A stretch of 64,000 nucleotides of DNA from an uncultured Solirubrobacterales bacterium (GCA_963751815.1 CAVVVY010000009.1:9578-73577), one strand, 5' to 3'. Positions 7,922 to 27,761 are shown, numbered from the stretch's first letter. Notes: generated by a model not told the origin, from the letters alone. Translations and numbers: made by a program.

Positions 7922-7926
7922 GTCCA

Positions 7927-8525: not shown

Positions 8526-8537
8526 CGAGGTCGGAAT

Positions 8538-8571
8538 CAATAAGAACATATGCGGACCCGTTCTGTCAAGG
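8538..8571 (-). promoter_or_regulatory. Conserved promoter/operator-like motif, copy 2
   Basis: The minus strand reads GCCTTGACAGAACGGGTCCGCATATGTTCTTATTG. That gives TTGACA, an 18-nt spacer and TCTTAT, with the same GGTCCG-N5-GTTC core. It sits 14 nt upstream of ATG 8525. Confidence 0.5.
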
Positions 8572-8629
8572 CACGCTGCGGAGTCCATTTTTCGCTCAGT
8601 TTGCCTAAACCGCCGCAAATGGCTTGAAT

Positions 8630-8671
8630 TAGCGGAAAACGGGAAACGAAAAGGGCTCGAAATATCGAGCC
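8630..8671 (-). terminator. Intrinsic terminator after the last operon gene (F)
   Basis: The minus strand reads GGCTCGA-TATT-TCGAGCC (7-bp perfect stem, 8654-8671) followed by CTTTTCGTTTCCCGTTTTCC. It lies 35 nt downstream of the stop at 8706. Confidence 0.6.
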
Positions 8672-8705
8672 TGCGGCGTACCACTATGCCCCAATGCGCC
8701 GCGTC

Positions 8706-9536
8706 TCAGCGGACGCGGCAGCTGCGGACCGACTCGGTGACGATCTTCTCGCCGCCGGCGAAGCTGTAGGTGGCGCGCGCGAAGGAGAGGAAACCGGCCG
8801 AGAACCCCTCCGGCACCGGGCAGGAGGCGTTCAAATAGCTTTTCCGGTTGCCGGCGTGGTTGTAGATCCGCGAGACCTTGACCGCGAAGCTCGCGACGTG
8901 CGGCCAGGGCCCGACCGAGCGCCTGATCGTCGTCACCAGGACGGTCCGGTTGTCTTCGTTGCGGACCGTGAACGGGATCACGAACGAGGTCGGCGGATCC
9001 ATCGAGTAGGCGTGGGCCCAGACCGCCGGGCGCCCGGCTTTCGTGCGTCCGTTGAAGGTCAGCAGGTTGGCCCTGACCCGGAACGCCGGCTGGTTGGGGA
9101 CGAATATCTGCGCCGAGAGCTCGCCGCGGCCGACCAGCGAGTCGCCGCATGCTTCCGAGCGCCTGTTTGCGTCGTCGTGCTGGTCAGGCGTTCGCGGGGG
9201 CAGACCGGGAGGCCGTGGGTGTTCATCGCGCCCCGCCACGCGAGTTCGAGCCGGATCCAGTTGACCCGTCGGGATCGGCGAGCCGTCGGTGGTCTGGACC
9301 CCTCCGGAGAGGAAGACCGAGACCGGGACTTTTTCGTCTCGCGGAAGCTTCCGCGGCTTGATCCCGCCGTTGATCATCGCGATCACGTTTTCGCGCTGGG
9401 CGCGCTCGGCGCCGGCGGTTCCGGCCCAGCTCGCGACGGCGAGGAGGACGACCAGAGTCAGAGCGAGGCGAGCGCGTTTAGCCCGCAGCAAACGGACGAC
9501 CAGATGAACCTTCGGCCCGCCGTCCGGCTCGACCAT
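8706..9536 (-). CDS. Operon gene F: secreted or signal-anchored hypothetical protein, paralog of 1852..2658. The ORF is open but contains a compensated frameshift pair.
   Basis: 276-aa ORF with a hydrophobic N-terminus, LALTLVVLLAVASWAGTAGA. Between ~9262 and ~9175 a different frame matches the paralog much better: VNWIRLELAWRGAMNTHGLPVCPRERLTS aligns with SITLALNRNGHLETRGLPRCKKGELIA. The listed frame there gives QLDPARTRVAGRDEHPRPPGLPPRTPD. Confidence 0.7.
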   Translation of the reverse strand: MVEPDGGPKVHLVVRLLRAKRARLALTLVVLLAVASWAGTAGAERAQRENVIAMINGGIKPRKLPRDEKVPVSVFLSGGVQTTDGSPIPTGQLDPARTRVAGRDEHPRPPGLPPRTPDQHDDANRRSEACGDSLVGRGELSAQIFVPNQPAFRVRANLLTFNGRTKAGRPAVWAHAYSMDPPTSFVIPFTVRNEDNRTVLVTTIRRSVGPWPHVASFAVKVSRIYNHAGNRKSYLNASCPVPEGFSAGFLSFARATYSFAGGEKIVTESVRSCRVR

Positions 9537-9608
9537 TTCCTATTCGCTCTCCTCGTACTTCCCGTTTGCGCCCGACCCAATCGGGCGACGTTGAAGAAGA
9601 CACTAGCG

Positions 9609-9645
9609 CCTCTGAGAGGGGTTTGCGGTCCGCGTATGTTCCCAA
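9609..9645 (+). promoter_or_regulatory. Conserved motif, copy 5, in inverted orientation within the E-F intergenic region
   Basis: The plus strand reads CCTCTGAGAGGGGTTTGCGGTCCGCGTATGTTCCCAAAC. It shares CCTCTGAG and GGTCCG-N5-GTTC with copy 3 but has poor -35 and -10 hexamers. Confidence 0.35.
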
Positions 9646-9676
9646 ACCGTAAGAGACCGTAGGAGCAGGGAAATTG

Positions 9677-12426
9677 TCAGTGCCGCTTGCGCTTGGCGCC
9701 GCTTCGGATGCGACCGCAGGCGGTCTTCGGCGACCGTCTGGCTCGTTTCCCGACCGCTCTGGGCCGTGTAGGCGACTGCGATCTTCGGCGGCGAGGCGCA
9801 GAGGCTTCTTGTGTTGACCAGGTAGCCCTGTTTGCCGCCGAGGAGGTCGAGCTTGAAGTAGCCGATCGGCGCGTCCGGGATCACCGGGACGACCGTGGTC
9901 AGCTTGCCGCCCTTCGAGAAGGATTCAGCCTGCGGAACAAGCCGGACCTGGCCGTCGAGGATGAAGGCGAGACGAGGCAGCTTGCCGAAGCCCGGAGACC
10001 GCGTAGGCGGGGCCGCGTCAGCGGCGCGTCGAGCAGCGGCGTCCTCGTTTCGACCGTTCCGATCGGCTGGCGCCCGGCGCAGGATTCGGCTGCGAGCTGG
10101 GCTTTCGAGCAGATGTTGCCGAGGTGGCGCTGGTCGATCGCGAAGGCTTTCGGCAGGGTGACTGCGAGCGACTTGATGTTGGCGTCGCCGTTGCGGGTGC
10201 GGAGCTCGAACCGCATCCGCGGATTGCGGCTCCGCTTGGTGTCCTTGCGGGTGCCGAGCTGGCGGACGGTCATGCTCGGCTTGAACGGCAGGGCCGAGCA
10301 GTTGACCGCGTTGAAGGACGAGGAGAAGTCGGTAACCGTCCCCTGGTCGCCGATGCCCTGCGAGTCGACCGAGAAGGTCGAGCAGTTGGTCGGGTTGATC
10401 GTGAAGTTCGGCTTGTCGATGTTGACCTCGATCGAGCGCATCCGGATCGGGACGCCCGCCGATGATGCTCGGCACCGTGTCCGAGACCGCGCTCACCTGG
10501 GCGGTCAGCGGGTCGACGTGGAGGGCGACGCGGACGACGACGACGCCGTAGTCATAGGGCCCGGCCAGCGCCGGCGTGACCGCCGCCAGGCTGAGCGGCG
10601 CCCCCTTGAACGGGCCCGGAGAGGTACATCTTCCCGATCGCGTGGAACGGGTGGCCGCCGGGGCCGCGCGGCGACGTTGGTCGTGCCGATCTGGGACGAG
10701 GCGGGGCAGCTCGGGGTCGCCAGCTCGGCGCGGCCGAGCCTCTGGGCGGCGGCGAGGATCGCGGATTCCGGGCAGTAGCCGATGCCGCGCAGGTCGCCGG
10801 TGAAGCCGGGCGGCATCCTGAAGTTGAGGTCGCCGAGGAACTGGTCGCCGTCGTCGCGGTCGAGTTTGAGGTGGAAGTTGGAGAAGGCGCCGGCGTTGGG
10901 TTTGAGGTCCCCGCCTCGAGCCGCGGCTGGAACGGGCGGACCTGGCCCGGGCAGGGGCGCCGTGCGGGCCCTGGCGAGGCCGAAATGCTGCGTCGAGTCG
11001 ACGTCGGGAAGCGATTTCGTTCCAGGGGAAGAAGTGGCGCGCGAGGTCGTAGATCGTGCAGAGGGTCGGGGTCGCGACGAGGCCGCGATCGGAGGCGAAG
11101 AGGTGGATGTCGAAGTCTTCGAACGGGACCTGGGGCAGGTCTTCGAAGTAGACCGTGATCTGCCCGGTCTGGGGGTTCGGTCTGACCGACCCGACCAGCT
11201 TGGCGTGCATGCCGAACCCGTCGAAGATCATGAAGAGCCGGTACTGGTCGCCGGGCTTCGGTTCGCCGAAGTAAAGCGAGCCCTTGAGGCGCCCGTCGAG
11301 CGTCGGCGAGCCGACGCTGAGGGTCCCGATCTTGGCGTTGTCGGGGCATTTGGCCGGGCCCTCGGACCCGAAGTTGGCCTGCGCGTCGGTGCAGGCGCTC
11401 TGGCCGTCGGCGGCGTCCGGGTTGATCGTCAGCCCTTGCGGGAAGGTGACGACCGCGGACTTGATCTCCGAGGGTGAGGCGGCGAATCCCTCGAACTGCT
11501 GGCGCTGAGATTCAGGTCGAGGCCCGACGGCCGAATCGGTTTCGTTGGTCGTCGGACTGGCCGTGGAGCAGCGGTTTGAACGTCTCCGCTCAGCATCCGG
11601 TCATCTCCGGATAGGTGCTCTCGGCATGGGAGAAGTACGCCGGGGTCCTGGTAGGTCTCGACCAAGAGTTTGGTCACGAGGTTCATGGCCGCTGCAGTGG
11701 GTCGGGTTGTCGGTGAACGGCTTGTTGGGAATGCTCGCTTTCGTCGGCGACGGTGATGCAGCTTGCGTCGGCCAGCCCGGGGCAGCCGGCGGATTGCCCG
11801 GGGAGCCCTTGGCGAACCGGTCGTCGTTGTGACTGAGATCGGCGGGGAAGCCCCAGATCGTCAGGTTGACGCGCGGCGAGCGGTGTCAGCTGGGTGATGT
11901 CGGAGACCTTGAAGCGCAGCCCGTAGTCGGTCGCCGTGCGCACCGTGATCGGGATCGCGATCGGGATGTCCAGGGTCGGGACGATGAACTCGATCAGCGC
12001 CGTCTGATCCGCTTGGGGGAGATGTCGTAGAGGGGCGCCGTGCCGAGAAGGTACCGGAGTAGTCGGAGTACCGTGATCAGGCCGAGCTGGGAGTTGGCGG
12101 GCATTGATCGAGGGCGAAGTCCGCGGCGGTGCAGTTGGTGATCGCGTTGATGTTGCCGAACAGGCCCTGCGGGGCGTTGAAGGTGATGTTTTTGGCCGCC
12201 TCGGGGTTGCCGGGATTTTCGAGCGAGAAGTTCGTTTCCAGGTCGGGATGGCCGCCCGCCTGGGTGTAGGGCCCTCCCCCTGCGGGTCGGTCATCGTTGT
12301 CACGAATGATTCGATCTGCTCGCTCGCCATGACCGGCGCGGCCACCGCCAATGAGAGCGCGACTGCCGCCAACAGGGCTACGGTGATCGTTCTTGGGATC
12401 ATTCTTGTGGTCTCCTTGCCGATCAT
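9677..12426 (-). pseudogene. Operon gene E: paralog of gene C (QAGGHPD / Cys-loop family), heavily frameshifted with well over 10 frame changes
   Basis: ATG at 12426 lies 8 nt after the D stop. The signal peptide is MIGKETTRMIPRTITVALLAAVALSLAVAAPVMA. Conserved segments are scattered over all three frames. Examples are IESFVTTMTDPQ, AGGHPDLETNFSLENPGNPEAAKNITFNAPQGLFGNINAITNCTAADFALDQCPPNSQLG, VNLTIWGFPAD and FEGFAASPSEIKSAVVTFPQGLTINPDAADGQSACTDAQANFGSEGPAKCPDNAKIGTLSV. Further examples are MIFDGFGMHAKLVGSVRPNPQTGQITVYFEDLPQVPFEDF, MPPGFTGDLRGIGYCPE, FKGAPLSLAAVTPALAGPYDYGVVVVRVALHVDPLTAQV and PIRMRSIEVNIDKPNFTINPTNCSTFSV. The inferred end is PKTACGRIRSGAKRKRH* (stop at 9677-9679). Confidence 0.6.
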
Positions 12427-12433
12427 CAGCCGC

Positions 12434-15400
12434 TCACCGATCGCCGCGGGTCGAGTGGCGCCGAACGTGATGCTTCCTCCTGTGCTTGGGCTTCCTCACA
12501 CACTTGCCCTTGTGCTTGGAGAAGCCCTTCTTGCAGGCCCCCGACGGGGAGGAATTGCCCGGAGTCCCGGCGATCGTCCCGATCGGAGGCCGGGCAGGGG
12601 CCTGGGTCCCCGGTCCGTGACACTCGTCCGACGCTGCGCAGAGTGCGGGCGGGGGCACATCAAAGAAACCACCTTCAATGCGGGCGTCATAGATCTTCGT
12701 GACCGGGCCGTTCAGGTCCTCATGGGCAAGCGAATCGTGGGTGAAGAAGTAGGCGTCGGTGGCGTCCGCGCCCGCCGAGAGAAGTCCTGAATCGTGGGGG
12801 CTCGAGCCCGCAGAGATCAGGCTGAGACAGTTTCCTGTGAAGGCGAAGTAGTTCGGGTTGTTGTTGCTGGCGACACAGTTCCCAGTCCCGGGAGGCTCCC
12901 ACTCATAGACGTCTTTGCGCCCGTTGGAGTCCAGCAGCGCAATTGCATCGGTCGAGTCGAAGAAGACACGGCCATCGTCGGTCAGGCTGAGGCCGTTTGG
13001 CGCAAGACTCGAATCGCCGATCACTTCCCCGTTGGTCGGGCTGCAGGACACGCACTCCAGTTCCTGTTGGGGGACGTCATAGCGATAAAGCTCAGTGTGG
13101 CCACCGTTGTCGACCTGCGGCAGCAGTTTTTGAACCGAGGGGAAGACCGCATAATTCCCGTCGGGTGACACCTGGAAATCTTCCGTGTGCCGTACGTCGG
13201 CGTCCTTGATTGCACGAACAACGGTCGAATTGTCGATGGGGCCCGGCCGAGGAGTGAAAACGGCGATGTGGTCTCCCACCGATGCGTAGATGACGCCGGT
13301 GTTGCCATTGATCGCGACCCCGCGAGAGCCGGGCGCGATGTCGGCTGATCCGAAGGTCCTGAGCTTGTTCCCCGATGAGTCAAACCTCAAGAGCTGGGTG
13401 CCCTCGTCGACGTAGAAGTCTCCGTTGATCGCATCGGTTGAGACTGCATTCGCGTTGAGCGACACTTTGTTCGGTTGTGAGATTTGCCTGGGGAATCCAA
13501 GCGTCAGGTCGGAGGTATGGGCCAGCCACATTTCGCCGCTGCTGTACGTTTCGCCGAAGATGACGTTGCCCGAACCGGCAGCAATCTCACACGGATAGAG
13601 AACCGGGACGCCGAAACCTCCAAGGGTGAGACCTCCGGTGTAGTCGGTCTCTTTCGGGTACGCACCCGAGGGCGTGTAGCGCCAAACCTGATTCGAGTAG
13701 TCGCCGACGTAAACGCTGCCGGTGTCGTGGTCCACCGCAACTCCACACGACTCGCCGAATCCGCCGTTGTAGTTGCCGGAGCCATTCAGGGTCGACAGGT
13801 ACTCACCCGTTGAGTCGAAAATATCGATCCCTCCGAAACTGGCGACGTAGATGTTCCCGCTCGCCGGCCCTTTCGAATCGTCAACGGCCACCTCGGAGGC
13901 GGACGGGCCATCGAAGGCGAATGAGCCAAAGGGAGCGGGGAGCGTGTTGCCGGAGCACGTGCCGCAGGTGAAGTCGTCGGGACTTCCATCGGGCTTGTAG
14001 CGCGAGACCGTTCCTGCTGCCGAATCGACCACATAGACATCGCCGCTTGTCGAATTGCCGGTGCTCTGGTCGACCGTCAGGGCTTCGGCAGCCGTGAAGG
14101 ACCCGAACGTTCCTGAGAATTCGGCCGGCAGAGGTGGTTTTCCTACGGTCGTGTCGATGGTCGCGACGAAAGTGGGGAGAGGATCCCGGCCTGGCCACAT
14201 ACAGATTCGCCTGGTCCTGGGTGCCGTGCGTGGGACCGTCGAGCAACTCCGGCGAGAGGAAATAGATGGTGCCGTCTCCGGCTGCGACGCCGCCGGCGCC
14301 GCCGATTGCGACCGCGTCGCAGTTGTTTTCACCGGAGACCGAGTTCCAGCCCTCGGCCGGCGAGCAGGCGTCGGTGTCGCCGGTGCCGGAGCCTCCTGTC
14401 GAGAGCCTGGTCAGCTCGGCGCTTGTACTTCCAACGTCTGCCCTAAAGATGTCGGCGCTGGTGTCGTCGTCGGAGGCTCCTGAGGGCACATCGGTCGTCG
14501 TGAAGAACACCTTCGTGCCGTCCGAGGTCATTCCGTCATAGAGCGCGCCGTCGGGAGTGTTCGGCGTCAGTTGGACCGAATTCGGCACCCCGGCGATATG
14601 CATATAGAGGTCATAGAAGTGGTTGCCGGCAGCGTCCGTTGCGACAAGGTCGCCGATCAGGGTCCGCGATCCGTCCCCGGAGACATCGAGCTCGACGACG
14701 TTGGAGCCGTCGGCGAGGGCGCTGCCGGACGTATCGGTCGAAACGATTTCGGTGGTATGGGTTTGGAGGTCGCGGCTATAGATCGTCAGGTCGGAGTTGT
14801 TGCTGTTCGCTCCCGGCTCGAACGCCTGTTTCGAGCCGAACATGAAGTGGGAGCCATCGTCCGAGAACGACTTCTTCACGGTGCCCGCGGAGACCGGATT
14901 CGAGACCGGAATCGAACCGACCATCCCCTGGGTCAGCGTCCCGTCGGGCTGGTGGACCGGCACGCCCTGGCTGCCGTCCGCGAAGCACGGATTGCAGACG
15001 CCGGGGCCGCCGAAGGCGAAGACGCTCAGGCTGGCGTCGGCTCCCTGGAGGGACGAGGAGAACGGAGCCGCTGACGGCGCGTCGGCCGGAATGCCGACGT
15101 ATTGGGTCGTCCAGCCGCTGGGCCCGCGCGTCGCTACGTAGGGATCGATTCCGCGATTGGTCGGGTTGCCGCTGACACCGGGTATCGCGCCGTTGTGGAC
15201 GCCATATAGGACCTGTGAGGGGCTGCTTGCGCGCGGGTAGCCCGAGAATGGGGCCTGGCCCGGCACCAGGCTCGACTCCACGTCGTACCCTCCAGCGTGC
15301 GCAGCTGACACGAGCTCAAACGCCCGACAGTCCAGCAATTGCGTCGCCCCGGTCTGCTGGCGCGCCAGCTTGTTGGCGCAGGTGTCGCTCAGAGTGTCAT

Positions 15401-17508
15401 TGAACGGCTGCGTGGCAAAGACCTTGTCCGGCCCCGACACGCTTCCGACCGAGTTCGTCGCGACAACCCGGTAGTAGTAGGTGGTGTTCGGTTCGAGGCC
15501 CTCGTAGATCCTGCTCTGGCCATCGAAGATGGAGTTCGACCCGATGTGGGCGTCAGAGGCCGGCGTCGAGGCACAGGTGTTGGGCACATCGGAGCACGGG
15601 CTCGTCCCGAACTCGAAATGGTATGTCGTATCCGTGCCGCCCGGATTGACTTCGGTGTTGAATCTCACTCCGTTGGAGTGCACTGCGCTGACCGACTCCC
15701 TCACCTGCGGGAGAACAGGCGCAGTCTTGAGAAACTGGTCGTCGCTCGCGCTGCTGCCGGCAGCGTTGACGGCAACAATCCGAAAGTGATAGATGCTCGC
15801 CGGTTCGAGGCCACTGATGGGGTATTCCTCGGCGGCTTGCTCGCCTACGCCGGGTGAGCCTGCATCGTCTCCTGGCGGATTGGCGGATTTGTGGTTGTAG
15901 CTCGTCGTGGTCCCCCACTCGAAGTAGTAGTGCGTCGAACTTCCATCACCAGTGAAGGAGCCGTTGAGCGTCGCACTCGTCGAGGTGACATTGGTCGCAG
16001 GGTCGGCCCGCAACCCCACGACCTTGTGAAGGATGAATGTCTGATCGGGCCCCGACACCGTTCCTTCCGCGTTCGTGATCACCACCCGATAGTGGTACTC
16101 CGCCTCCGGAGTCAGCCCGCCGACGTCTGCATGAACTTCCGTTGAGCCACTGAAGCTACCCGCGCCCGGGTCGGGTGAACAGGTGGCAGTACCGTGAGAC
16201 GCTCCGCCTCCATACGGATTGGTGCTATCGGCTTGGTAGTCCGCGTCCGCGACGTAGTCGAAGTGGCACCCGCTGATCGCGGATGTGCCGTTGGGATCAA
16301 CCGTGGCGTTCAGCGTGATCGAGGTCGCGCCCAGATTGGATTCGGGTTTGTAGGCGACCGACTCCATCGCCGGGCGCGGGCTGTAGATGTCGACGACCCC
16401 GTGGGTGCCATCGTTGACATACAGATAGCCTTGAGAGTTGACGGCCAACCCGACGACGAAGTCGTAGCAGTAGATGCTCGCGGGCGGGTTGAGGCCGCCG
16501 AAGCACTGGTAACCGAATTCCCCGGCGGGCGCGTCGGAGCCGTCGATGTGGCCGAGATATTCTCCCGACGGAGAGAATTCGTCGACCCAGAAGTTTGCTC
16601 TGTCGGATACGAGGATGTTTTCATTGGTCGGGTCGATCGCGATCCCCCGAATCCCGCAAAGTCTCCCCCCCAGTCGGGGGTCGACGCCGCGGGCGTGTTT
16701 GGGTTCGAAGGGACTCCGGAGGAAGCCGCGGTGATCCGCCGGATGAAAACACCGCTCGGCGCGAACTCGTATATGCCGCGGTTTGTCGGGTTATAGGCGC
16801 CAGCATCGGTGACCCAAATATTGCCGTGGGAATCGACCGCTATCCCTGCCCGATATCGGAATACTGGTCGCCTCCGGCGTATTGCGAAAAGCTTCCATAG
16901 GGTGACCCGGTGATCTTGTTTCCAACGATGTAGCTGGAATTACCCGAGAAGTTGACCGGGTTACCGTAACCATCGAAGACCTGAATGAAGTTATTTCCGT
17001 AGAGGTAGACCCGCCCTCTCGACGGGCCGTTAGTGTTGTCGACCGCAGTGTTGAGCTCGGTGGAGGGTTCCGCCCCCTTCATCTGACCATAGAATTCGCC
17101 GAAATTATCGAAGATGTTGTAATTGAACTGGCCCCCCGGGACCGGGGCGTAGAGAAAGCCGTTCGAGTCGTTGAAGGACGGGCCGTGGACCTGGTTTCCA
17201 CCACCCCACCGACCACCTCCGTCCTGTTCTCCGATCTTTGTATGCGTCGGATAGGCGTCGTAGTGAGTCAGCACGCTGCCCCTCCCGACGTCGGAGATCC
17301 AAACCGAGTCGTCGCCGCTGTGATCGACGAAAACGCCTCCGGGCTTGCCGAAGCCGGTTATCTGGGAGTCATATGTTCGAGGAGCGAACGCCCCGAACGC
17401 AGGGCTGACAGCGCCTGCCAGCACAACAAGAATCGCGCACAGGGTCGCGAGGCCGGCTACTCGCGGGTAAGCCCGGGCTGAATTCGCCGACTTGGAGTGC
17501 ATCTTCAT
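12434..17508 (-). pseudogene. Operon gene D: ~1690-aa secreted protein with three frame changes. Modules in order: NHL-like propeller, 3 fn3/PKD-like units, TolB-like propeller, second NHL-like propeller, TolB-like module, Cys/His/Lys tail.
   Basis: The RBS AAGGGAG lies just upstream of ATG 17508. The signal peptide is MKMHSKSANSARAYPRVAGLATLCAILVVLAGAVSPAFG. The gene joins several pieces. The first is 16840..17508, part of ORF 16840..18222. The second is an unlisted frame at ~16645-16850 (GIAVDSHGNIWVTDAGAYNPTNRGIYEFAPSG). The third is ORF 13881..16448, whose frame is open upstream to ~16645. The fourth is ORF 12434..14332, which is real from ~14175 (VATIDTTVGKPPLPAEFSG). Frame changes fall at ~16850, ~16650 (next to G runs) and ~14175. 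Confidence 0.7.
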
Positions 17509-17531
17509 TGGCTCCCTTGGTCTCAACATGC

Positions 17532-20269
17532 CTAACGCACCGCCCTTGCCCGGTGGCCGTCCAAGTTGTCCCTTTGACCGGCATGAGTACGTCAGCTTGG
17601 GCCGGCTGGAGTGCTTCCCGTTGTTGTAACCCCGCATCGCAGCCGCGGCCCGCACGTTTCGACCGCACAGTGTGTCGGTGTTCTGAACGAGCCCTTTGGA
17701 GCCTCCGAGGAGGTCGAGGGAGGCGTGGGAGAAGGGCACATCGGGTACCCCTTCGAATGTCGATCGCAGGCGACCGTTGACGCTGTCTATCCTGGCGGCG
17801 ATTTCAAGATCCACCTGTCCTTCCAGGTCGAGGACCAGGTCTGGAAGTTCGTGGCTCGAGGTGCGCAGGTAGACGGATCCGCTAAGAGGCTGGTCCAGCA
17901 GTGGGGTCGTGATTCTTGCCTTTCCGACCCTTGAGTCGGAAGGACACGCATTCCGCGCGAAGTCGGCCCTGGAGCAGACGCTTCCGATGTGACTATTGTC
18001 GAGCAGCTCCCCTTCCGGCAGGGTCACCGAGATTCGTTTCGGGTTCGCTTCGCCGGGTCCACTGGAGAGCTCGGCATGGATCGCCGGATGCCCCCGCCGT
18101 CGCACCCCGCCGCCCAGTGATATCGACAACTTCGGGTGGAACGGCAGGAGCGCGCAATTGGCGACCTGGTAGTGGGAGACCAGGTCGGACACCGCCGGAC
18201 TGATTTCCTCCGACCGCTGCACCCACGCTGAGTGGGTCGCAGTTCGTGGGATTCAGGGTGAATCCGGGGCGGTCGAGGTTCACTCGGATGTGCCGCAGCC
18301 GAAGCGGGATCCCCTCGACGATCTTCGGCAGACGATCCGTGATCGCGGTGACATGAGCATCCCGCTGGTCGACCTCGAGAGCAGTCCGCACGATCACGTT
18401 CCCGAGGTCATAGGGACCCGACACGGCGGGAACGACGATGGCGAAGCTCAGCGGAGCGCCGTTGTAGGGGCCCGCCAGGTAAACCCTCCCTGACACGTAG
18501 ACCGGCCGCGTTCCGGCACCCGCTCCGACGATCGCCGTACCGACCTGGGAGGCGGCGGGGCAGACAGGGCTCTGCAGCTCGGCAAGTCCGGAGTACGCGT
18601 CGCCTTCCAGTGCGCTCAATGTCGCGTCCGGGCAGTAGGGAATGCCGGCGAGCGTGCCCGTGAAGCCGGGTGGGGTGGTCACGGTCAGGGAGGAAAGTTC
18701 CTGATCTCCGTCGATCCGGCTCAGGTCGATCGAGAACGGACTGTGGGCACCGGCTGTGTTGCCCTGCGAGTTCGCCTGGAAGCCCGGGTTGAATGGCCGG
18801 GTCGGGCCGGGGCAGGGCCGCCCGCCGGGGCCGGAGTCGATCGTGAAGAACTGGGTCGACGTCTGGCTCGGGAGCGCTTCATCCCATGGAGTGAAGGTGC
18901 TTACCACCGGATATGTACCGCACTGTCCGGGCGTTGCCAACAGGCCGCGCTCCGCCCCGAAGAAGTGCAAATTGAACTCGGTGAGAGGGCTCTGGGGCAG
19001 ATCATTGAACGTCGAGACCACCTGGCCCGTCTCTGGGTCCGGGTGAATCGAGCCGGCCAGCTTGATGTGCGTGGCGAATCCATCCGCCGTGAGGAACATC
19101 CGGTATCGGTTTCCGGGCTGAGGATCTCCGATGTAGATCGAGCCCGGAATCGGCTGGGGCAGGGCAGAGCTATCGACGCTGACTGTGCCGATCTTCGAGA
19201 ACTCCGGGCAAATGGCGGCGGCATTGGATCCAGTGCCGATGTTGGCGGCCACGTCTGAGCAGGACGTCTTACCGTCGGCCGCATTCGGATTGAGCGAAAA
19301 GCCCTGTGGCAGAGTGACGGTCGCGGCTTTCAACTCGGATGGGGAGGGGAATTTGGCGCTGAGCAGCTGGGGTACCGTGAGGTCAACGTCAACACCCGAG
19401 GCGGAGTCGGCCTGCGTCGTGGTGGGCCTCGCGCTCAGGCTCGGGTCGAAGTTGAGCTGGTCACAGCCGACGGCGGTGGGCCACGGAGAGCTTGCGGTGC
19501 TTACGCTGCCGTCGTAGCCCTTCACGGTGGCCGTGGTGCTCAACGTTCCCGAGCATTTGGTCGGGTTCTGGAGGAACGGGGTGAGCGGACTGTTCGAGGG
19601 CGTCGGCGTGGTCGGGTTTGCGTTGCTGAACACACGCAGGGCGTCATGGCTGGGATCCGCCGGAACTCCCCACAGCGTCAGGTTGAATGATTGCGGCTCC
19701 GCGAAGTGTGTGAGCTCGGTTTCGGCGGTGAGGCCGTAGTCGCTGCCGGTTCTCGCTTCAAACACGGTGTAGAACGGAATGTTGAAAAATTCGGGCGCAA
19801 GCATGAACGCGAGCAGACCCGCCTGGTTGGGGTTGGGAACCATGTTGTAGACGGGCTTATTTGGGTCGGTGAGGTAAAACCCCAACACCTTGACCGCGAC
19901 GCTGATGACGCCGACCTGGGAATCGGCCGGGCATACGTTACGCACGAAGTCGGCCGCGAGGCACTGAGGTGTTGCGTGAGGGTTGCCGATGAAGCCGGCG
20001 GGGAAATCGAGTTTGAGGTTCTTCGGCTCGTTGCATTGGCAATTTTTCCCCAGGTCGGGTTCACTGGCGGTCTCCCCGGCATAGGAAATCCCGAGATCGG
20101 GGTGACCGCCGGCCTGGACCGAGCTCGGCCCGGCGACGAAGCTCCGGATTTCGATCGCCTTGGCCTGAGGTGCAAGGCCGAGGATGCCGACGAAGAGCGC
20201 GGCGGCAACTCCGCCCAAAATGAACTGCCTTCTGAGTGTCACGCGGTTCACCATCGAGCGATCAACCAT
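17532..20269 (-). pseudogene. Operon gene C: ~900-aa secreted protein of the QAGGHPD / four Cys-loop family with a Tat-like signal. It has one internal frame change and an unresolved 3' end.
   Basis: ORF 17993..20269 (758 aa) starts MVDRSMVNRVTLRRQFILGGVAAALFVGILGLAPQAKA and overlaps the B stop (ATGGTTGA). After ...FTLNPTNCDPLSV (~18225) the conserved sequence continues in the frame of ORF 16840..18222: SDLVSHYQVANCALLPFHPKLSISLGGG...CPSDSRVGKARITTPLLDQPLSGSVYL...LVQNTDTLCGRN...KLTYSCRSKG. That frame runs without a stop into gene D. An out-of-frame TAG at 17532-17534 is the nearest plausible stop. Confidence 0.7.
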
Positions 20270-23200
20270 TCCCGTGCCCCCTAGAGTGCGACTTTCCGTG
20301 AAGCCGGTGCCGCCTGTGCGATTTCCTCGGCTTCTTCTTGCCCGGTGCCGCCTTGGCAGAAGGGAGATTTCCCGATGCCCCCAGATCGGCCCGGGTGCCG
20401 ATGCTCATGCCTGCGGGTTCCGAGCTACTTGCGCCATGGCACTCGTCGGCCGCGGCACAGCCGGGCGGTGGAGGAACAAACGCGAAGCCTCCACCCGTTC
20501 GGGCGTCGTAGATCTTCACGTTGCTGCCGTTTCGATCCTGTTTGACGAGGGTGTCCGTCGTCGAGAAGTACACGTCGGTCCCGTCCGCACTCACCCCAGT
20601 CAAACCGACCACCGAGAAGACCGTGGACAGGCCGAAGCTGTTGTTGGCCGGCGCGGTCCCGCTGGTAATCAGCTGGGGACGCCCGTCGACGTACTCGTAC
20701 ACATCGGTCGTTTGGTTGGTGTCCTGAGGAACCAATTGCTCGTCCGTGTTGAAGAATGTCCGACCGTCGTCAGTCATGAAGCGGCCATCGTGACTCGCGG
20801 TCACGTCCATGCTCGGCGTCTCGCCGTTCGGCAGACAGGACGTACATCTCAAGTCGCCTGTCGCCGGTGTGTAGAGGTAGATCTCGGAGTGCCCCGCGTT
20901 GTCGTAATTGGTGACCAGACTTGACGTCAGGAATGCCATATGGCTGTCGTCCGGCGAAATCTCCATCCGAGCAACTGCTGTGGCGCTGCAGGCCGGCGTG
21001 CCCTGGTTGTAGACACAGGATGGGGAATCCGGCGTGAGGGCTGTCACGAACTGCAGTTCCCCCTCTCTATAGTCGTAAAGGTTTTCCGCGCCTGGGACGC
21101 CATTGTCGCCATCAAGCTGCTCCGGCGAGATGAAATAGATATCGCCGTTACCCGGAGCGACAATGTTCTCGAACTGCGGATTGCCGCCCGCCCCTCCCAG
21201 CTGGTCCGTGTACTGCAGATTGAAGATGTCTTTGCCGAGAACGTGATGATCCCGACATTGCACTTCGTCGTCCACGATGCGTTGCAAGAGTCCGAATTTC
21301 CACTGCTGCCGTCGTTGCCTTTTGAGATCAAGGTGAGAGCACTCGGCGTGCTCTCATTCCACATGTAGAGGTCCTTGCTGGTGTCTTTATCGCTGTCGTC
21401 GGAGGTGAGCCTCTCGCCCGAGGTGAAATAGACCTTTGAGCCGTCCGGCGTCATGTCCACATACTGAACCTGGTGACCCGCAGCTATGTCATAGGTCATT
21501 GCGTCGTCGACCCTCATGAACAGTTCGCCCGGCCCGCTCGTCTTCGCCCACGTGCCGGGTTCCCGTGCTCCTCCGACGGTCATGAGGATGTGAGAGCCGT
21601 CGGTCGAGGTCTCGACTGGCATCGCCTGAAGTGGATCCCCTTCGGAGTCGCGAGACACGATGGAGAGCGTGCCGTCCGCAATATCGTTGTCGTACATGTC
21701 GCCGGGGTTGCCGCCCGGGATGGCCTGTCCCGGAGGAGAGGAGCCGGGCAATCCACCTGGGACAAACGGAATATTCGAAGTGAATATGAAATGGCTCATA
21801 TCGGCCGACGCAACCGTGTGGCCGACGAACTTCTCACCGAACGGCACCGTTGCCACATTGGTCGGCCAACGATCCGTAATTGCCCCCGTCGCTGAGTCGA
21901 CTATGTAGGGCGCATCTGAATGCCCTTTCGGGACATCCGGGAGACCGTAGGCACCCTCTCCCGAGCCGTCGGTCTGGCAGGTGGCGTAGTCATTGACGTT
22001 GCAGTAGTAGTAGCCACGGTCCCAGATCCCGACCTGCGACATGCTGGGATTCGTGAGCACATCCTCGAAATTCCCGGCGTAGTAAGAGTTGTTGTATGCG
22101 AGGTTCCACGGCGGGCCGCCCGACCACACCGCCAGGCTCGACGGAAGGCCCACATACTTAGTGGTCCAGCCTGTGGAGCTCCGAGTGGACAGATAGAGGT
22201 CACCCCTGTGATTCGGAGGACTGCCTGCGCCGGGAACGGCGCCGAAAAGGCCGGCAAACGTCGTTCGCGAAGGAGAGGTCGCCGTCGGGCTCTGGGGCGT
22301 CGGGCCACTGAAAATGACCACCGTGCCGGCGTCTTCCGGCGTGACCAGCTCGTATGCGCGGCAATCCGGGAGACTGCTCGCGTTCGTTTGTTGGCGGACC
22401 GTCTCGTTCGGACAGTTGGGGGGATAGAAGTTGAACGACAGGTCACCGGATTTCGCGGTGCCGTATTCGTTGGTCGCCACGACCTGGAAGTGGTAGACCA
22501 CATGTGGGGTCAGGTCGCTCAGGTGCACGCTGACCGGTTCGGCGGCGTCACTGGCGCTGAGAGCCCCGTCCGGAATCGGAGCACTGAACCCGTATGACGG
22601 TGTTGGTCCATACTCGAATCGGTAGGTGGTCGCCGAGTTGTGCGGATTGATCGTCGCATTCAGGTCCGCGGAGGTGGCCGTCACGTTCGATACCGATTGA
22701 CTGACAATCGCTGGAATCTCCGGGGCCTCGAACGTCACATCCTCTCCGTAGCTGGTTCCGAATGAGTTGGTGGCAACAACCCGATAGTGGTAGGTGTTGC
22801 CGGGGACGAGGCCGACGATGTCGCTGCTTACGGACTGTGTACCGCTGGGCTGCTGATCAGGGCCCACCAGCGGCGTGGTATGCGAATAGCTCGTGGAGGG
22901 GCCCCACTCGAAGTGGTAGGTGGTTGCGTCGTTGGTTCCGAGGTAGGACCCGTTTAGTGTCACCGACGTGGGTTTCAGGTTGGTGGGGGGATCCGTCATC
23001 AGGCTCGTTACCGCAGGCGGTGTCGTGAAGGAAGAGTCTGTGCCTTTGCTGACTCCTGTCGAGTTTTCCGCGACGATCTGGAAGTGATAGGTGTGCCCCC
23101 CTTCCAGGCCGGTGAGTTCAAAGGACAAGGGAGTCATGCCGGCTGTCGGCCCTTGGACCGCGCCCGGCGGAATAGCGGTCTGTTGTCCGTAGGCCGTCGT

Positions 23201-24825
23201 GGGCCCGTAGTTGAAGTACCAGTGCGTCGTTTCATTGGTGCCTTCATAGGAGGCGTTCAGTTTCGCCGCGCCCCGGGTGACTTCGGTTGCCGGCTGTGTG
23301 ACGAGATTGGGGACTGCCAGCTGGGTCGTGAATGACTGGTCAGTCCCTTTGCTGATCCCTTTGGAGTTTTCCGCGACGATCTGGAAGTGATAGGTGTGCG
23401 CCGGTTCCAGGCCCGTGGCTTCGAAGGACAGCGGAGTCGCTCCGACCGTCGGGCCTTCGACCGCGCCGGGCGGAATTGCGGACTGTTGTCCGTACGCCGT
23501 CGTGGGCCCGTAGTTGAAGTACCAGTGCGTCGTTTCATTGGTGCCTTCATAGGAGGCGTTCAGTGTCGCTGTGGTACGTGTGACTTCTGTCGCCGGCTGT
23601 GTGACCAGGCTCGTCACAAAATGTGGCGTGAAGGTTCTGTCTGCGCTCGTGTTGCTGCCACTCGCGTTCCCCACTTTGAGACGGAAGTGGTAGAGGGTCT
23701 CGCCCGTCACGGCACCCGTCACGTCGGCGGTTACATCCTGTTCGCTGGCGTAATTGGGGCCGGGTGAGCAGGGAGCAGTCGCTGGGCTGCTGTAGTTGGC
23801 GGAGGTCGAGAATTCGAACACGCAACTGGTGACTTCACCCCCACCCGCCGGGTCGACGTGGCCGTGCAGCGTCGCCAGGCCCGTCGGTTCGCTGGTTGTG
23901 ACATCCGGCACGATCACGCCGGGGAATCGTTTGATCTTGCTGTTGCTGGCGTCGGCGACAAAGACGTCTCCGCTGGCCTCGTCGATCGCTATCCCCCTAT
24001 AGCTCCCCCCAAGCCCGGACGCAAATTCCTCGATCAGAGTCCCGGTTCGGTTCATACACGCTTACGTTTCCCGTCTGGGCGACATAGACCCGATGGCTCG
24101 TGGCGTCAACGGCCAGGGCCTGGGTGCTGCCCGTACTCACCTGGTTGAATGACGTGTATCCGCTGGCCGCCGTGAACCTGTAGACGGGCCCGTTGTAGTT
24201 GGCGCTGAGAAAGGTCGCCGTTGGCACGGTCGAAGGCGATGTGGCAGGGTCGGCCAGAGCCGGCGCCGGAGACACTGATCGAACCTTCCGAGGATCCGGT
24301 CGAACTGTATTTCTTCACCGATTGGGTGCCGTAGTCGCCAACCCAGGCGTGACCGCTGCCGTCGGTCGCGGCGCCGCAGGGATCGCCAAAGCCGCTGACC
24401 GAGAAGATGCTCGAGCCAGTGGAGGTGAACCCATAAAGGCCACTGTTCTCCGATACGAAGTAGATGTTGCCATTACCGCTGTCGACGGCGAGGTCGGGCA
24501 CTGACCCGGGGGGATTCACAGTGAACGGGAAGCCACCGAGAGGCGTGTAGGTGCCGGGCGTCGATGCGTCGAAGCCGTAGACTCGCGACGAGCCTGAGTC
24601 GAGGACATAAAGGCGGTGCGTGGCCTCGTTGAAGGTGAGAGGCCCGGTGGACCCGGAGAAGCTGGTAGCTCCGGTCCCGTCGGTCCCAAAGGAAGAGGTC
24701 GCAGTCGGGTGGACGAACGCCGCCGACGCCGAGCTCGCTGCAATGGCCAGCATCGATGCCGTGACGGCGATGAGAATTCCAACTCGGTGCGTCATTCGCC
24801 CTCTCTTGTCTCGTCTTTCAGCCAT
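20262..24825 (-). pseudogene. Operon gene B: ~1520-aa secreted protein with three frame changes. Modules in order: NHL-like propeller, 5 fn3/PKD-like units, TolB-like propeller, Cys motif and basic His-rich tail.
   Basis: The pieces 24106..24825, 23997..24275, 21044..24055 and 20262..21287 join into one protein. They are MAERRDKRGRMTHRVGILIAVTASMLAIAASSASA..., FLSANYNGPVYRFTAASGY..., MNRTGTLIEEFASGLGG... (1003 aa) and ...DIFNLQYTDQLGGAGGNPQFENIVAPGNGDIYFISPEQLDG...KIYDARTGGGFAFVPPPPGCAAADECHG...KKKPRKSHRRHRLHGKSHSRGHGNG. Frame changes fall at ~24215, ~24040 (an extra C in AACCGGG relative to the gene A paralog YEPNGKLIEEF) and ~21250. The start overlaps the A stop (ATGGCTGA). Confidence 0.7.
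23061..23666 (-). repeat. Two tandem 303-bp near-identical copies inside gene B, each encoding one fn3/PKD-like unit
   Basis: gagttttccgcgacgatctggaagtgataggtgtgc occurs at 23061 and at 23364. An identical run of over 60 nt, ccgtcgtgggcccgtagttgaagtaccagtgcgtcgtttcattggtgccttcataggaggcgttcagt, is in both copies. The encoded units are LVTQPATEVTR..A.LNASYEGTNETTHWYFNYGPTTAYGQQ.AIPPGAV.GPT.G.TPLSFE.TGLE..HTYHFQIVAENS.G.SKGTD.SFTT. Confidence 0.8.
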
Positions 24826-27145
24826 GCTTGGCGCCCCTCTGCTTGTGGTGGCGTTTGCGACGGTGCTTCTTCTTCACGCATTTGCCCTGCTTCTTGACGA
24901 AACCGGACTTGCAGGCGGTGGTGGGGGCCGATGGGCCGGCGGGCGCCGCCGTCGTGAAGACCTGATCGGGGCTGGCGACCCTGCCGTTCCCGTTGACGGC
25001 GACGATGCGGTAGTGGTAGGTGGTTCCGGGGGCAAGGCCGGACACGGCCGCGCTGACCGAATGCGCGGAGTTGTCCGCCCCCACCGATGGATCGTCCGGC
25101 GTGCTCGAGCCGTAGGAGTCGCTGGTCCCGTACTCGAAGTGGTAGGTCGTGGCGCTGAGGCCGGGATTGACGACCGCGCCGAGGGTCGCGGAGGTCTGAG
25201 CTATCGCCGACGCCGCGAGCGAGTCGACGCGCGGCGCGGAGGGGGTGGTGAAGGTTTCGTCCGGCCCTCGCACCGTGCCGCTGAAGTTGGTGGCGACGAC
25301 ACGGAAATGGTATGTGCCTCCCGGCACGAGATCGGAGACATCGGCGCTTGCGGTGTGGAACTGGGCGTCGGCAGGGGTCGGGCCACCGGGATAGGTCTGC
25401 GTTTCATATGACGTGGTGAGCCCATACTGGAAGCGATAGACGGTGGGCCCCGAGCCCGGATTGATCGAGGAACTGAGCGTTGCGCTGCTCTTGGTGACGG
25501 ACGCAGCGGAGGTGCTCGCGATCACGGGTAGATCGGGCGGTGTGGTCACGACCACCTGGTCTTCACCGTAGTTGTAGCCGAAGGAATTGTGCGCGACCAA
25601 TCGGTAGTGGTAGGTCCCGTTCGCTTCGAGATCGGTCAGGTTCGCGCTGACGTTTTGGGGCCCGGTACCGCTTCCGTTGCTGACGCCCGGGGGCACGGCT
25701 GTCGTTTTGCCGTATTTCGTGTCGAGCCCGTATTCAAAGAGGTACTGAATATCGGCACCATCGCCGTTGTAGACGCCATTGAGGGTTGCGGTGAATTTCG
25801 TGATGCCGGTCGCCATACCCGTGGTGACGCCCCCCACCGCGATGGGCGTCCTGAAGGTCGCGTCTTCTCCCGGGTGCGGATAGCTGGCATTCGCGACGAC
25901 GAGTCGGAAGTGATATCCGGTGTCCGCCGTGAGGCTCGATAGATCGGCGTGGACATCGGTTTGCGTCGTGATCGGGTTGCCCGGGGTGCCGACCACCGCG
26001 CCGTTGCCATTCCGGCAGCCGACGCTCCCCAAGCCGTAGCTCGTGTCGGTGCCGTAGTCGAAATGACAATCGACGACGTTGCCGGCGCCCGCCGGGTCCA
26101 CGTGCCCACGAAGCGTGACCGACGTCCTGGTCAGGCTGGAAACTGAGCTGTTGGACGCATCGGGCACGCTGATGCCGGGGAAGACGCGGACCTTGCCGCC
26201 GCCGTTGGCATCGGTGAGATAGACGTCGCCGGTCGTGGAGTCGACGGCAACTCCCGTCCAGTTTGCGCCGAGCCCGGTCCCGAATTCCTCGATCAGTTTC
26301 CCGTTTGGTTCGTATGCGAAGACGGAACTGGATGCGGCGATGTAGATCGTGTGGGTATTCGAATCGACGGCAACTCCGGTCGTCTGCCCGAATGTGATCG
26401 GCATGCTTTCGGTGTATCCGCTGCTGTTCGGGTAGCGGCGGATGCCGCCGCTGTATTCGCCCACATACATGTCGTCGTTGGACTGGTCGAACGCGAGGCG
26501 GCATGGACTCGACGAGGGGGTGCCATCTGCAGTGCCGGTGAAGACCCCCGCCGAGGTGTACCTGAGGATCGGCTTCGAATAGAAGTTGCCGACCCAGATG
26601 CTGCCTCCGGCATCGACGGCCGACCCGCAGATGTATTCCGACACGCCTGCGGGATAGGTGGGGTCGATCGGGAAGTTGCCGCCGAGGGCGGACCCGGCGG
26701 AATCGAAGCCGGCGATCTTCCCGGTTTCGCCCGTGCCGGAGTAGTAGAGCTTGCCGGTGGCGCCATCGACGCTCATGCCGGCGTAGGGGCCCCCGGCTTC
26801 GACGTTGATCGGGAAGTTGCCGGTCAGCGGCGCGAAGGGGGCGGGAGTGGAGGTGGTGTCGAAGCCGTAGATCCTCGGCGTGCCGGAGTCGTCCTCGACG
26901 TAGAGATGATGGGTGTTCTTGTCGACGGCGATCGCCCGGATCTGATTCGAGAAGGTCGTCCCCGACGTTCCATCCACGCCGAAGCTGGCTGTCTGGATGG
27001 TGTGGACGAAGGAGGCCGATGCCGACGAGACGGCGAGGACCAGCGGGACGAGGGCGGCGACGGCGACGGCGATCGAAAGGCGCCGCCCGCTGCGCGCGGC
27101 GAGGTCGCCGCTCAAAGCCATCGGCCGTCCCTTCGGGCGTCTCAT
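24818..27145 (-). CDS. Operon gene A: 775-aa secreted protein, intact. Modules in order: NHL-like propeller, 4 fn3/PKD-like units, Cys/Lys/His C-terminal tail.
   Basis: The RBS GGAAGGAG lies upstream of ATG 27145. The signal peptide is ...SGRRLSIAVAVAALVPLVLAVSSASA. Propeller blades include LYVEDDSGTPRIYGFD, SIWVGNFYSKPILRYTSAG and DVYLTDANGGGKVRVFPG. Four ~100-aa units carry TATLNG..N..G....Y.FEYG....YG and GT(Y/G)YH(F/Y)R(L/V)VA.N. The tail is CKSGFVKKQGKCVKKKHRRKRHHKQRGAKHG. Confidence 0.85.
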   Translation of the reverse strand: MRRPKGRPMALSGDLAARSGRRLSIAVAVAALVPLVLAVSSASASFVHTIQTASFGVDGTSGTTFSNQIRAIAVDKNTHHLYVEDDSGTPRIYGFDTTSTPAPFAPLTGNFPINVEAGGPYAGMSVDGATGKLYYSGTGETGKIAGFDSAGSALGGNFPIDPTYPAGVSEYICGSAVDAGGSIWVGNFYSKPILRYTSAGVFTGTADGTPSSSPCRLAFDQSNDDMYVGEYSGGIRRYPNSSGYTESMPITFGQTTGVAVDSNTHTIYIAASSSVFAYEPNGKLIEEFGTGLGANWTGVAVDSTTGDVYLTDANGGGKVRVFPGISVPDASNSSVSSLTRTSVTLRGHVDPAGAGNVVDCHFDYGTDTSYGLGSVGCRNGNGAVVGTPGNPITTQTDVHADLSSLTADTGYHFRLVVANASYPHPGEDATFRTPIAVGGVTTGMATGITKFTATLNGVYNGDGADIQYLFEYGLDTKYGKTTAVPPGVSNGSGTGPQNVSANLTDLEANGTYHYRLVAHNSFGYNYGEDQVVVTTPPDLPVIASTSAASVTKSSATLSSSINPGSGPTVYRFQYGLTTSYETQTYPGGPTPADAQFHTASADVSDLVPGGTYHFRVVATNFSGTVRGPDETFTTPSAPRVDSLAASAIAQTSATLGAVVNPGLSATTYHFEYGTSDSYGSSTPDDPSVGADNSAHSVSAAVSGLAPGTTYHYRIVAVNGNGRVASPDQVFTTAAPAGPSAPTTACKSGFVKKQGKCVKKKHRRKRHHKQRGAKHG

Positions 27146-27288
27146 CGCTCTCCTTCCCTTGTCCCCTGGCCACCCGCCGTCGGCCCCGACCCGCTGTGCG
27201 AGTCCCCTGGCCCCGGGCCGGGTGGCCCATTTACTTTTCTCTCCCGCCCTCCGGGTGGCGCTTGCGAGCGCTCCCCCTCAGGCGGCCG

Positions 27289-27322
27289 TAATGAGAACAC
27301 AAACGGACCAGGATGTCAAGCC
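27289..27322 (-). promoter_or_regulatory. Conserved promoter/operator-like motif, copy 4, proximal to operon gene A
   Basis: The minus strand reads GGGCTTGACATCCTGGTCCGTTTGTGTTCTCATT. That gives TTGACA, a 17-nt spacer and TCTCAT, with the core GGTCCG-N5-GTTC. It sits about 140 nt upstream of ATG 27145. Confidence 0.5.
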
Positions 27323-27433
27323 CGTCTTTTCGGTAGAGGCAGCTCCTTCACATCATCTGGCTTTGTAGAGGGGTTTCCATTACAGCGATCGGTGCATAGT
27401 CGGCCAGAAAAAGAGTTTCCAACGTACCGGAAG

Positions 27434-27451
27434 AAGAACAATGTCGTTCTT
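27434..27451. promoter_or_regulatory. Inverted repeat AAGAAC-AATGTC-GTTCTT
   Basis: Read directly from the sequence. Its half-site AAGAAC/GTTCTT is the same hexamer present in motif copies 1-3. It lies in the lower-GC intergenic region. Confidence 0.3.
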
Positions 27452-27565
27452 TGACGGTCGAGCTCGAGGTCCTCGGGGCGGCGATCCAGCCCGGGCCGGC
27501 TCAGCTGGCTCCAGGAGCGGCGATCCGGCACCTGGATTCGCTGGCTTTGGAACGCCGGTGGGTCA

Positions 27566-27580
27566 CTTTTGACGCAAAAG
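27566..27580. promoter_or_regulatory. 15-bp palindrome CTTTTG-ACG-CAAAAG
   Basis: Read directly from the sequence. It is AT-rich, unlike the surrounding genome, and sits between the operon and the divergent TetR gene. Confidence 0.3.
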
Positions 27581-27598
27581 CCATTGCGGGTACCATTT

Positions 27599-27632
27599 CA
27601 ATAAGAACTTTAGCGGACCAATAACTCAGAGG
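27599..27632 (-). promoter_or_regulatory. Conserved promoter/operator-like motif, copy 3, distal to operon gene A
   Basis: The minus strand reads CCTCTGAGTTATTGGTCCGCTAAAGTTCTTATTG. It has the same core and TCTTAT hexamer but a weak -35 (CTGAGT). Confidence 0.4.
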
Positions 27633-27722
27633 TAAACCCAGAGGAGTCTTAGGAACCAGGCAGTATCTAGACCCCTGAATAGAGTCGGTGTCGTACCGTA
27701 AAAATTGGCTCTGCGAGCGAGC

Positions 27723-27752
27723 TTGAGTGACGTATGCGTACCCGGCTATGGT
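27723..27752 (+). promoter_or_regulatory. Putative sigma70-like promoter of the double-TetR gene (near-leaderless)
   Basis: TTGAGT (27723-27728), an 18-nt spacer and TATGGT (27747-27752). The ATG at 27762 is 9 nt downstream. Confidence 0.35.
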
Positions 27753-27761
27753 GGTGCCAGG

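Follow-up and report, generated by a model that had tools for sequence, protein, structure and literature searches.

To which kind of system does a bacterial operon belong that encodes six exported, mostly very large repeat proteins and no recognizable machinery? The question is raised by a stretch of 64,000 nucleotides (nt) from an uncultured Solirubrobacterales bacterium (GCA_963751815.1 CAVVVY010000009.1:9578-73577), called the window in what follows, in which six consecutive genes of the minus strand, A to F, occupy positions 8706 to 27145. Solirubrobacterales are common, almost entirely uncultured soil Actinomycetota. The six genes, referred to here as the cassette, are one copy of an undescribed, conserved, and heavily paralogous operon of uncultured soil Solirubrobacterales (class Thermoleophilia), and searches of the literature on Solirubrobacterales or Thermoleophilia in combination with NHL, fn3, or S-layer found no relevant description of it. 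The cassette represents a large, conserved, and unannotated system in abundant soil bacteria, of which the window holds a copy of poor sequence quality.

Gene order, copy number, and a linked regulator

Relatives were collected by an alignment scan with Cfam, the family formed by the products of genes C and E, against one genome per GTDB species. The scan gave 210 relatives, and the best 80 loci, all of them from metagenome-assembled genomes (MAGs) labeled as Solirubrobacterales, Thermoleophilia, Actinomycetota, or Actinomycetes, were combined with a close relative, L001, to a set of 81 loci. In every one of the 81, genes of the same kinds follow each other on one strand in the order (propeller-fn3) / fn3-Cmod / Cfam / fn3-Cmod / Cfam, where Cmod stands for the C-terminal module common to B and D. 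At the junctions of consecutive long open reading frames (ORFs) in these loci, neighboring genes overlap by 1, 4, or 8 nt in 208 of 230 cases (90%). An earlier note, made from the sequence of the window alone, had read A to F as one translationally coupled operon, and the recurrence of the gene order in other genomes, the overlapping stop and start codons on the same strand, and their conservation across the relatives all bear this out. Given this conserved order and the stop-start overlaps, A to F are probably transcribed as one unit.

It had escaped the earlier note that this unit, correctly recognized as such, has many paralogous cassettes beside it in a genome. One chromosome of 3.09 Mb carries at least 14 Cfam genes (7 cassettes), and another MAG at least 17, with a tandem array of about 100 kb. 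With 7 or more cassettes, each measuring 15-18 kb, we estimate that they make up roughly 3.5-5% of the DNA in genomes of ~3 Mb.

Of the 33 loci in which the F family was matched, about 30 have an F-family gene behind the second Cfam gene, sometimes in two copies. Some loci (L060, L065, L067, L070, and L071; e.g., L070 18674-19297) have after E two tandem F genes and a gene for an additional protein of ~207 amino acids (aa). This accessory protein, the gene of which is not present in the window cassette, has a signal or anchor sequence and a C-terminal domain with Cys, and its repeat region weakly matches a PHROG tail-fibre family (6e-7).

In the window, gene A (24818..27145) runs from a start codon at 27145 to a stop codon at 24818 and encodes 775 aa in a single intact ORF. 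It is followed by B (20262..24825), for which the intact ortholog in L001 (5440-10008) encodes 1522 aa, by C (17532..20269), with 913 aa in the ortholog P0001, by D (12434..17508; start at 17508, stop at 12434), with about 1690 aa, by E (9677..12426), a Cfam paralog of C, and by F (8706..9536), with 276 aa and an open ORF. All start and stop codons named in the earlier note are present, whereas its continuous ORFs are not, A being the only clean one. As it had stated, the start codon of B and the stop codon of A overlap in ATGGCTGA and those of C and B in ATGGTTGA, and the remaining gaps are tiny (7 nt between D and E) except the one between E and F (~140 nt). Shine-Dalgarno-like purine-rich runs precede the starts of all six genes. 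The E-F spacer contains a short stem-loop rich in G+C, GCCCGA-TTGG-GTCGGGC (~9560-9600, minus strand), at which processing or attenuation might take place.

Upstream of A, a promoter-like region on the minus strand (27290..27325) combines a perfect TTGACA hexamer at -35 with an AT-richer stretch behind it, a pattern read by eye and weak as evidence; a consensus promoter scan reported no minus-strand sites, the TTGACA hexamer included. Downstream of F lies a hairpin resembling an intrinsic terminator (8654..8671, minus strand), GGCTCGA-TATT-TCGAGCC followed by CTTTTCGTTT, which with 7 pairs, 5 of them G-C, is the top-ranked terminator-like site of the minus strand. Both motifs exist as claimed, but that they should occur only upstream of A and only after F is not statistically established, since the promoter scan found nothing on the minus strand and terminator-like matches are overall not above chance (17 found vs 13.6 expected).

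A feature to which the earlier note had paid no attention lies upstream of the cassette. On the plus strand, divergent from A, a gene (27678..29055) encodes a double-TetR regulator, i.e., a protein with two TetR_N helix-turn-helix (HTH) domains, and is split by a frameshift near 28475. Each of the two overlapping ORFs has a Pfam TetR_N match, and the tblastn matches of the gene run in frame 3 and then in frame 1 and are 75-89% identical to intact tandem-TetR genes of 431-473 aa upstream of other cassettes. A gene of ~450 aa with two TetR_N domains is situated upstream and in divergent orientation in 8 of 10 loci tested. By tblastn, TetR matches were obtained in 46 of the 81 loci. In about 35 of these, the match is tandem, near full length, upstream, and divergent, and in the others it is short, weak, or downstream. 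Judged from this arrangement, the divergent double-TetR gene probably controls the operon. Between cassettes, the regulator is 75-89% identical, as compared with ~50-55% for the cassette proteins. Just downstream of F, two minus-strand ORFs (8010-8684 and 7241-7957, together 7241-8684) jointly resemble another tandem-TetR gene, which may be frameshifted as well, since Pfam TetR_N is found only in the second ORF (7241-7957).

Domains, export signals, and comparison with known systems

Protein A consists of a signal peptide, a six-blade NHL propeller, four or five fn3-like units, a Cys-X10-Cys motif, and a polybasic tail. In B, a signal peptide, an NHL propeller, and five fn3 units precede a Cmod of ~710 aa, with PD40-like blades and a CxxxxxC motif, and a polybasic tail. 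D begins with a signal peptide, a divergent propeller, fn3 units, and a first part of Cmod, and continues with an inserted NHL-like propeller, the second part of Cmod, Cys-X10-Cys, and a polybasic tail. The NHL-like blades that had been noticed by eye are recognized by Pfam in A (28.2 bits at a cut-off of 20), and in a phmmer search against PDB the propeller of B matches Pizza6 (E 1e-15), of the PknD-derived Pizza propellers, and PknD itself (1RWI, E 2.9e-9). Likewise, the fn3-like units score above the Pfam cut-off of 25 bits (A, 49.1; a piece of B, 50.4; a piece of D, 46.0), and titin fn3 is among the PDB sequence matches. Pfam Pur_ac_phosph_N is also matched in A.

The paralogy of A, B, and D over their first ~330 aa, as proposed before, holds for A and B (39% identity over 325 aa, E 1.5e-60) but was overstated for D, the first 330 aa of which are only weakly similar to A (E 0.07); the clear match in D is the propeller inserted within its Cmod. 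That B and D have a C-terminal module in common was seen correctly, and it opens with RQQT..DCRA[YF]ELV (RQQT..DCRAYELVSP). The TolB/PD40 blades assigned to this module are represented by sub-threshold matches only: Pfam PD40 is found in 6 of 20 Cmod members, with a best E of 0.0024 and all scores below the cut-off of 20.9 bits, and Gmad1 (LpqB propeller), equally sub-threshold, in 3 of 20. A Cmod profile found no relative in PDB.

C and E had been placed in a second family, and they are indeed paralogs with 36-40% identity. Cfam retrieves nothing from Pfam or NCBIfam, and a single-sequence search of PDB with C was also empty. In an exhaustive profile search, Cfam matched the representatives of 9,830 clusters formed at 50% identity, 3,881 of them at E<=1e-30, and in giant proteins of 3,400-7,161 aa (P0361-P0374) up to 15 tandem Cfam-profile matches occur. 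Informative fusion partners were sought in longer homologs, and fn3 was the only one, with fn3 arrays joined directly to a Cfam module in natural fn3-Cfam fusions. The AlphaFold2 (AF2) model of C, built from 102 homologs (predicted local distance difference test, pLDDT, 87; predicted template modelling score, pTM, 0.76), is an all-beta chain of ~6-7 disulfide-rich sandwich domains. Foldseek searches with this model against PDB and BFVD returned generic multi-Ig chains only (integrin legs, factor XIII, ClfA, SdrD, and the S-layer proteins SbsB and EA1) with template modelling (TM) scores <=0.15, at which level they were rejected as a family assignment for C.

The F family comprises at least 464 matches. 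F has no family in Pfam, NCBIfam, PHROGs, or PADLOC, and the AF2 model of its ortholog P0121 (pLDDT 86), consisting of an N-terminal signal or anchor helix and a beta-rich domain, obtained no fold match below E 0.01 in a Foldseek search of PDB. About 6 kb past the cassette there is an isolated F-family paralog of 268 aa (1852-2658, minus strand), with 30% identity to F and no adjoining Cfam or Cmod genes. Cfam, Cmod, and F are without a relative in Pfam, in NCBIfam, or among solved structures, apart from the sub-threshold PD40 matches of Cmod.

The statement that every product starts with a signal peptide holds for all six N-termini, which look signal-peptide-like, as do those of about 95% of the family members. 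What had been overlooked are the polybasic tails conserved at the C-termini. In their final 30 residues, A carries a net charge of +16, B of +15, C of +11, and D of +15, and E ends in a basic tail as well (...GAKRKRH), none of these tails having a hydrophobic segment. Tail charge is a family trait, with a median of +9 for Cfam (96% at +6 or higher, against a background of -0.5) and of +16.5 for Cmod. In A and D, Cys-X10-Cys directly precedes the tail. Cysteines are numerous in Cfam proteins (median, 20), with 18 of them invariant in an alignment of 20 sequences and 14 in one of 102. The conserved polybasic tails together with the many cysteines suggest that the products form an extracellular complex attached to the envelope.

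The earlier note had found neither an enzyme nor a transporter, sortase, secretion ATPase, or chaperone among the six products, and this statement stands, because nothing but NHL, fn3, and weak PD40 matches came out of Pfam, NCBIfam, PHROGs, and PADLOC. The sole NCBIfam match is to the NHL part of ScyF and far below cut-off; the sole PHROG match is a weak beta-propeller repeat match of B, and PADLOC has no match for any of the six. Nor could the note place the gene set in a described surface-assembly system, and none of those examined fits. There is no LP.[TSA]G motif in A to D or F and no sortase domain in the cassette or the tested flanks, and the tails lack a hydrophobic segment. Pfam and NCBIfam scans of the cassette proteins detected no SLH or CWB2 domain. 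With regard to PEP-CTERM, no PEP motif was found in the last 60 residues (by regular expression) and no hydrophobic helix in the last 40. Type VII substrates, taken here as small WXG100/ESX-like helical proteins without a Sec signal peptide, encoded next to EccC-type ATPases, differ from the products of the cassette, which are all-beta proteins of 276-1690 aa with signal peptides, and the cassette encodes no ATPase.

Several known systems come closest to the cassette. The N-terminal domains of A and B resemble the NHL propeller of PknD from Mycobacterium tuberculosis (PDB 1RWI) and of Pizza, and in both cases the propeller is extracellular. In contrast to PknD, A and B have neither a kinase domain nor a transmembrane segment. 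The propeller of the cassette proteins is joined to fn3 arrays, with the unannotated module of ~710 aa added in B and D. The model of C, a beta-sandwich chain behind a signal peptide, is of the kind found in the MSCRAMMs ClfA and SdrD and in the S-layer proteins SbsB and EA1; although the Foldseek probability is as high as 1.0 for ClfA, the low TM scores limit this likeness to the fold class. Other than these proteins, those of the cassette lack LPXTG, sortase, SLH, and CWB2 and end in Cys and a polybasic tail. The blades of Cmod, DG..VFF.....D.N...DVY, are similar to those of TolB/PD40 and LpqB (Gmad1) propellers, all Pfam matches being sub-threshold. As an analogy only, the polysaccharide utilization loci of Bacteroidota (SusC/SusD) also exist in many divergent copies of paired genes, often with an adjacent regulator. 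The cassette, however, belongs to another envelope in another phylum, is linked to a regulator of the double-TetR type, and encodes neither homologs of SusC/SusD nor TonB transporters nor glycoside hydrolases. The kinds of domains are known, i.e., NHL, fn3, Ig-like, and probably PD40.

Frame breaks and selection in the window copy

Genes B to F of the window copy contain a total of at least 17 frame-changing indels, over which the earlier note had silently passed in giving clean models for these genes. Break sites were placed by a map of ORFs and stop codons, by homology tracing, and by base-level alignment to L001 (ENA ERZ25039556 contig_33191), which was found via a 96%-identical homolog of C and is 94% identical to the window. 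The frame changes in B at 24212, 24045, and ~21236-21191, in C at 18194, and in D at 16851, 16646, and 14168, and E has at least seven frame switches. At 17556, C has lost 5 nt and thereby its normal stop context, and its tail is fused into the frame of D. In F, three +1 insertions (~9262, ~9170, and ~9156) garble about 40 residues (roughly 101-140), including a conserved Cys.

The idea that such breaks are confined to the cassette, suggested at first by seven intact large genes at 30-47 kb, was rejected, as split genes are also encountered outside, at about 3.1, 4.95, 28.5, 52.1, and 57.45 kb. A luciferase-like gene (2705-3511) is partial, a TetR gene (4488-4949) lacks its HTH, and a GGDEF-EAL gene (51146-52132) is truncated at 52132 with most of the GGDEF domain gone. 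The gene for an alpha-oxoamine synthase (serine palmitoyltransferase/KBL-like) is split near 57450 into two plus-strand halves (56485-57420 and 57494-58102), which match residues 15-183 and 207-389 of a PDB homolog. Because genes outside the cassette are frame-broken too, the window comes from a generally indel-prone assembly.

In L001, B (1522 aa) and C (913 aa) are intact, and A, D, E, and F are broken at positions other than in the window. Each gapless block between indels has just one frame that is open in the window and L001 alike, with a strong excess of synonymous changes. Ratios of nonsynonymous to synonymous substitution rates (dN/dS) were calculated according to Nei and Gojobori with the frame picked per block, a procedure with a slight downward bias, most blocks having a single open frame; between the window and L001, they amount to 0.27 for A, 0.12 for B, 0.16 for C, D, and E, and 0.29 for F. 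All six genes are under purifying selection relative to L001. In E, the most broken gene, a value of 0.16 implies that purifying selection acted during most of the divergence, and a long-standing pseudogene is rejected on these values.

Most probably, the frame breaks in the window copy arose as consensus indel errors of a Nanopore-type assembly, made worse at a locus that varies between strains. This reading follows from the purifying selection in all six genes, from the different break positions in L001, and from the frameshifted genes outside the cassette. Related MAGs are Nanopore-only assemblies obtained with Flye and one round of Medaka (PMC12313526).

A serious rival, although in our view an unlikely one, is that the window cassette is a recently pseudogenized copy, in which real frameshifts are tolerated as paralogous cassettes supply the function. 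Several observations tell in its favor and thereby against assembly errors. The density of breaks is ~1 per 1.1 kb in the cassette and ~1 per 8 kb outside, an about 7-fold difference (at least 17 disruptions in 18.4 kb vs ~5-6 in the other ~45 kb), and most of the cassette breaks do not lie in long homopolymers. One insertion in F, an 'A', is common to the window and L001 and is followed by different compensating insertions in the two genomes, each summing to +3. In addition, the adjoining double-TetR regulator is broken, and other cassettes, whether from Nanopore or Illumina MAGs, are mostly intact; it is the intact orthologous cassettes of other Nanopore MAGs that leave room for real and recent frameshifts in the window copy. 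If the genes were decaying, however, one would have to account for dN/dS values of 0.12-0.29 in every gene, even in E, for blocks between indels that are open in both genomes, and for the lack of accumulated in-frame nonsense codons. Moreover, B and C of L001 are intact where the window is broken and the reverse is true for A, and genes of a housekeeping type elsewhere in the window are frameshifted too. The deposited sequence needs frameshift correction ahead of annotation or expression work.

Divergence from L001 is not uniform along the operon. Synonymous divergence (dS) is 0.03 in A and 0.33 in B and E, and identity drops to 81-86% across the Cmod of B and to 85-89% across E, compared with 94-99% elsewhere. 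The stretches of low identity correspond to window positions 20560-22560 and 10060-12060. This mosaic suggests that parts of the operon have been replaced by recombinational exchange.

A possible envelope complex and its alternatives

How might such a set of proteins work? We propose that the operon, linked to a double-TetR regulator and transcribed as one unit, would give rise to six signal-peptide proteins composed of binding or structural beta modules. These would be exported, probably via Sec in view of their many disulfide cysteines. B and C as well as D and E would form stoichiometric pairs, as suggested by the duplication of the coupled genes for fn3-Cmod and Cfam and by natural fn3-Cfam fusions, and the pairs would join A and F in a non-covalent multi-subunit complex of the envelope, held by its basic C-terminal tails on anionic polymers of the wall or membrane. 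Such a complex might serve as coat, adhesin, or ligand binder, and the divergent cassettes of one genome, often situated beside a regulator, might provide alternative surface specificities.

For the account as a whole, i.e., a conserved paralogous operon, a complex held at the envelope, and a window copy broken mostly by assembly errors, we estimate a probability of roughly 0.55. Besides the density and nature of the breaks, other points detract from it: the PD40 call for Cmod is sub-threshold, the attachment to the envelope by basic tails is something we infer from the protein sequences, and the guanine-cytosine (GC) content of the cassette (0.61-0.64; window positions 12000-28000) is below that of its flanks (about 0.70).

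A bolder version of this account, which we put forward tentatively as a possibility, would be a new, clade-specific envelope system of Thermoleophilia with a new retention signal, namely the Cys-containing polybasic tail devoid of a hydrophobic segment. In such a system, heteromeric complexes may pair propeller-fn3-Cmod subunits with Ig-like Cfam subunits, together with A and F. If it exists, at least 7 ligand-regulated operons per genome would amount to a switchable coat or to a set of substrate-specific capture devices, and polybasic tails might be a new way of retaining proteins on a Gram-positive-type envelope. A role for the complex would at the same time cover a large block of microbial dark matter (Cfam, Cmod, and F).

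Alternatively, the products might be released, either as soluble binding or scavenging proteins or as polymorphic effectors, with the cassettes forming a repertoire of specificities. Every product has a signal peptide, and membrane anchors, LPXTG, and SLH are absent throughout; the numerous cassettes, often beside a TetR regulator of the ligand-responsive type, are reminiscent of substrate-specific loci, and the mosaic of synonymous divergence described above is typical of loci exchanged by recombination. We regard release as rather improbable, as no toxin, enzyme, immunity, or transporter domain is encoded in any of the 81 loci, retention on an anionic envelope accounts better for the conserved polybasic tails, and selection is purifying and not diversifying.

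An origin from a phage or mobile element, with tail-fibre-like, receptor-binding proteins, or a role in anti-phage defence would agree with the lower GC content of the cassette, with generic fold matches between C and Ig-like tail and decoration proteins of viruses, and with the weak tail-fibre match of the ~207-aa accessory protein, but was rejected as highly improbable, given that PHROGs and PADLOC contain no family for the six products beyond the one weak propeller match of B, that the flanks sampled at a handful of the 81 loci contained no phage genes such as those for an integrase, capsid, or terminase, and that the cassettes are arrayed in tandem on the chromosome and accompanied by a conserved regulator of cellular type.

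Two further observations concern the cassette and its surroundings. Six kilobases upstream of it, an ORF of 847 aa on the minus strand (33444-35987) has matches to subtilase (Peptidase_S8) and to Big_13 Ig-like domains; as far as checked, it is not conserved beside other cassettes. The GC content at third codon positions (GC3) is ~0.83 in the cassette and 0.90-0.97 in the flanks, for which amino-acid composition, expression level, or foreign origin are options.

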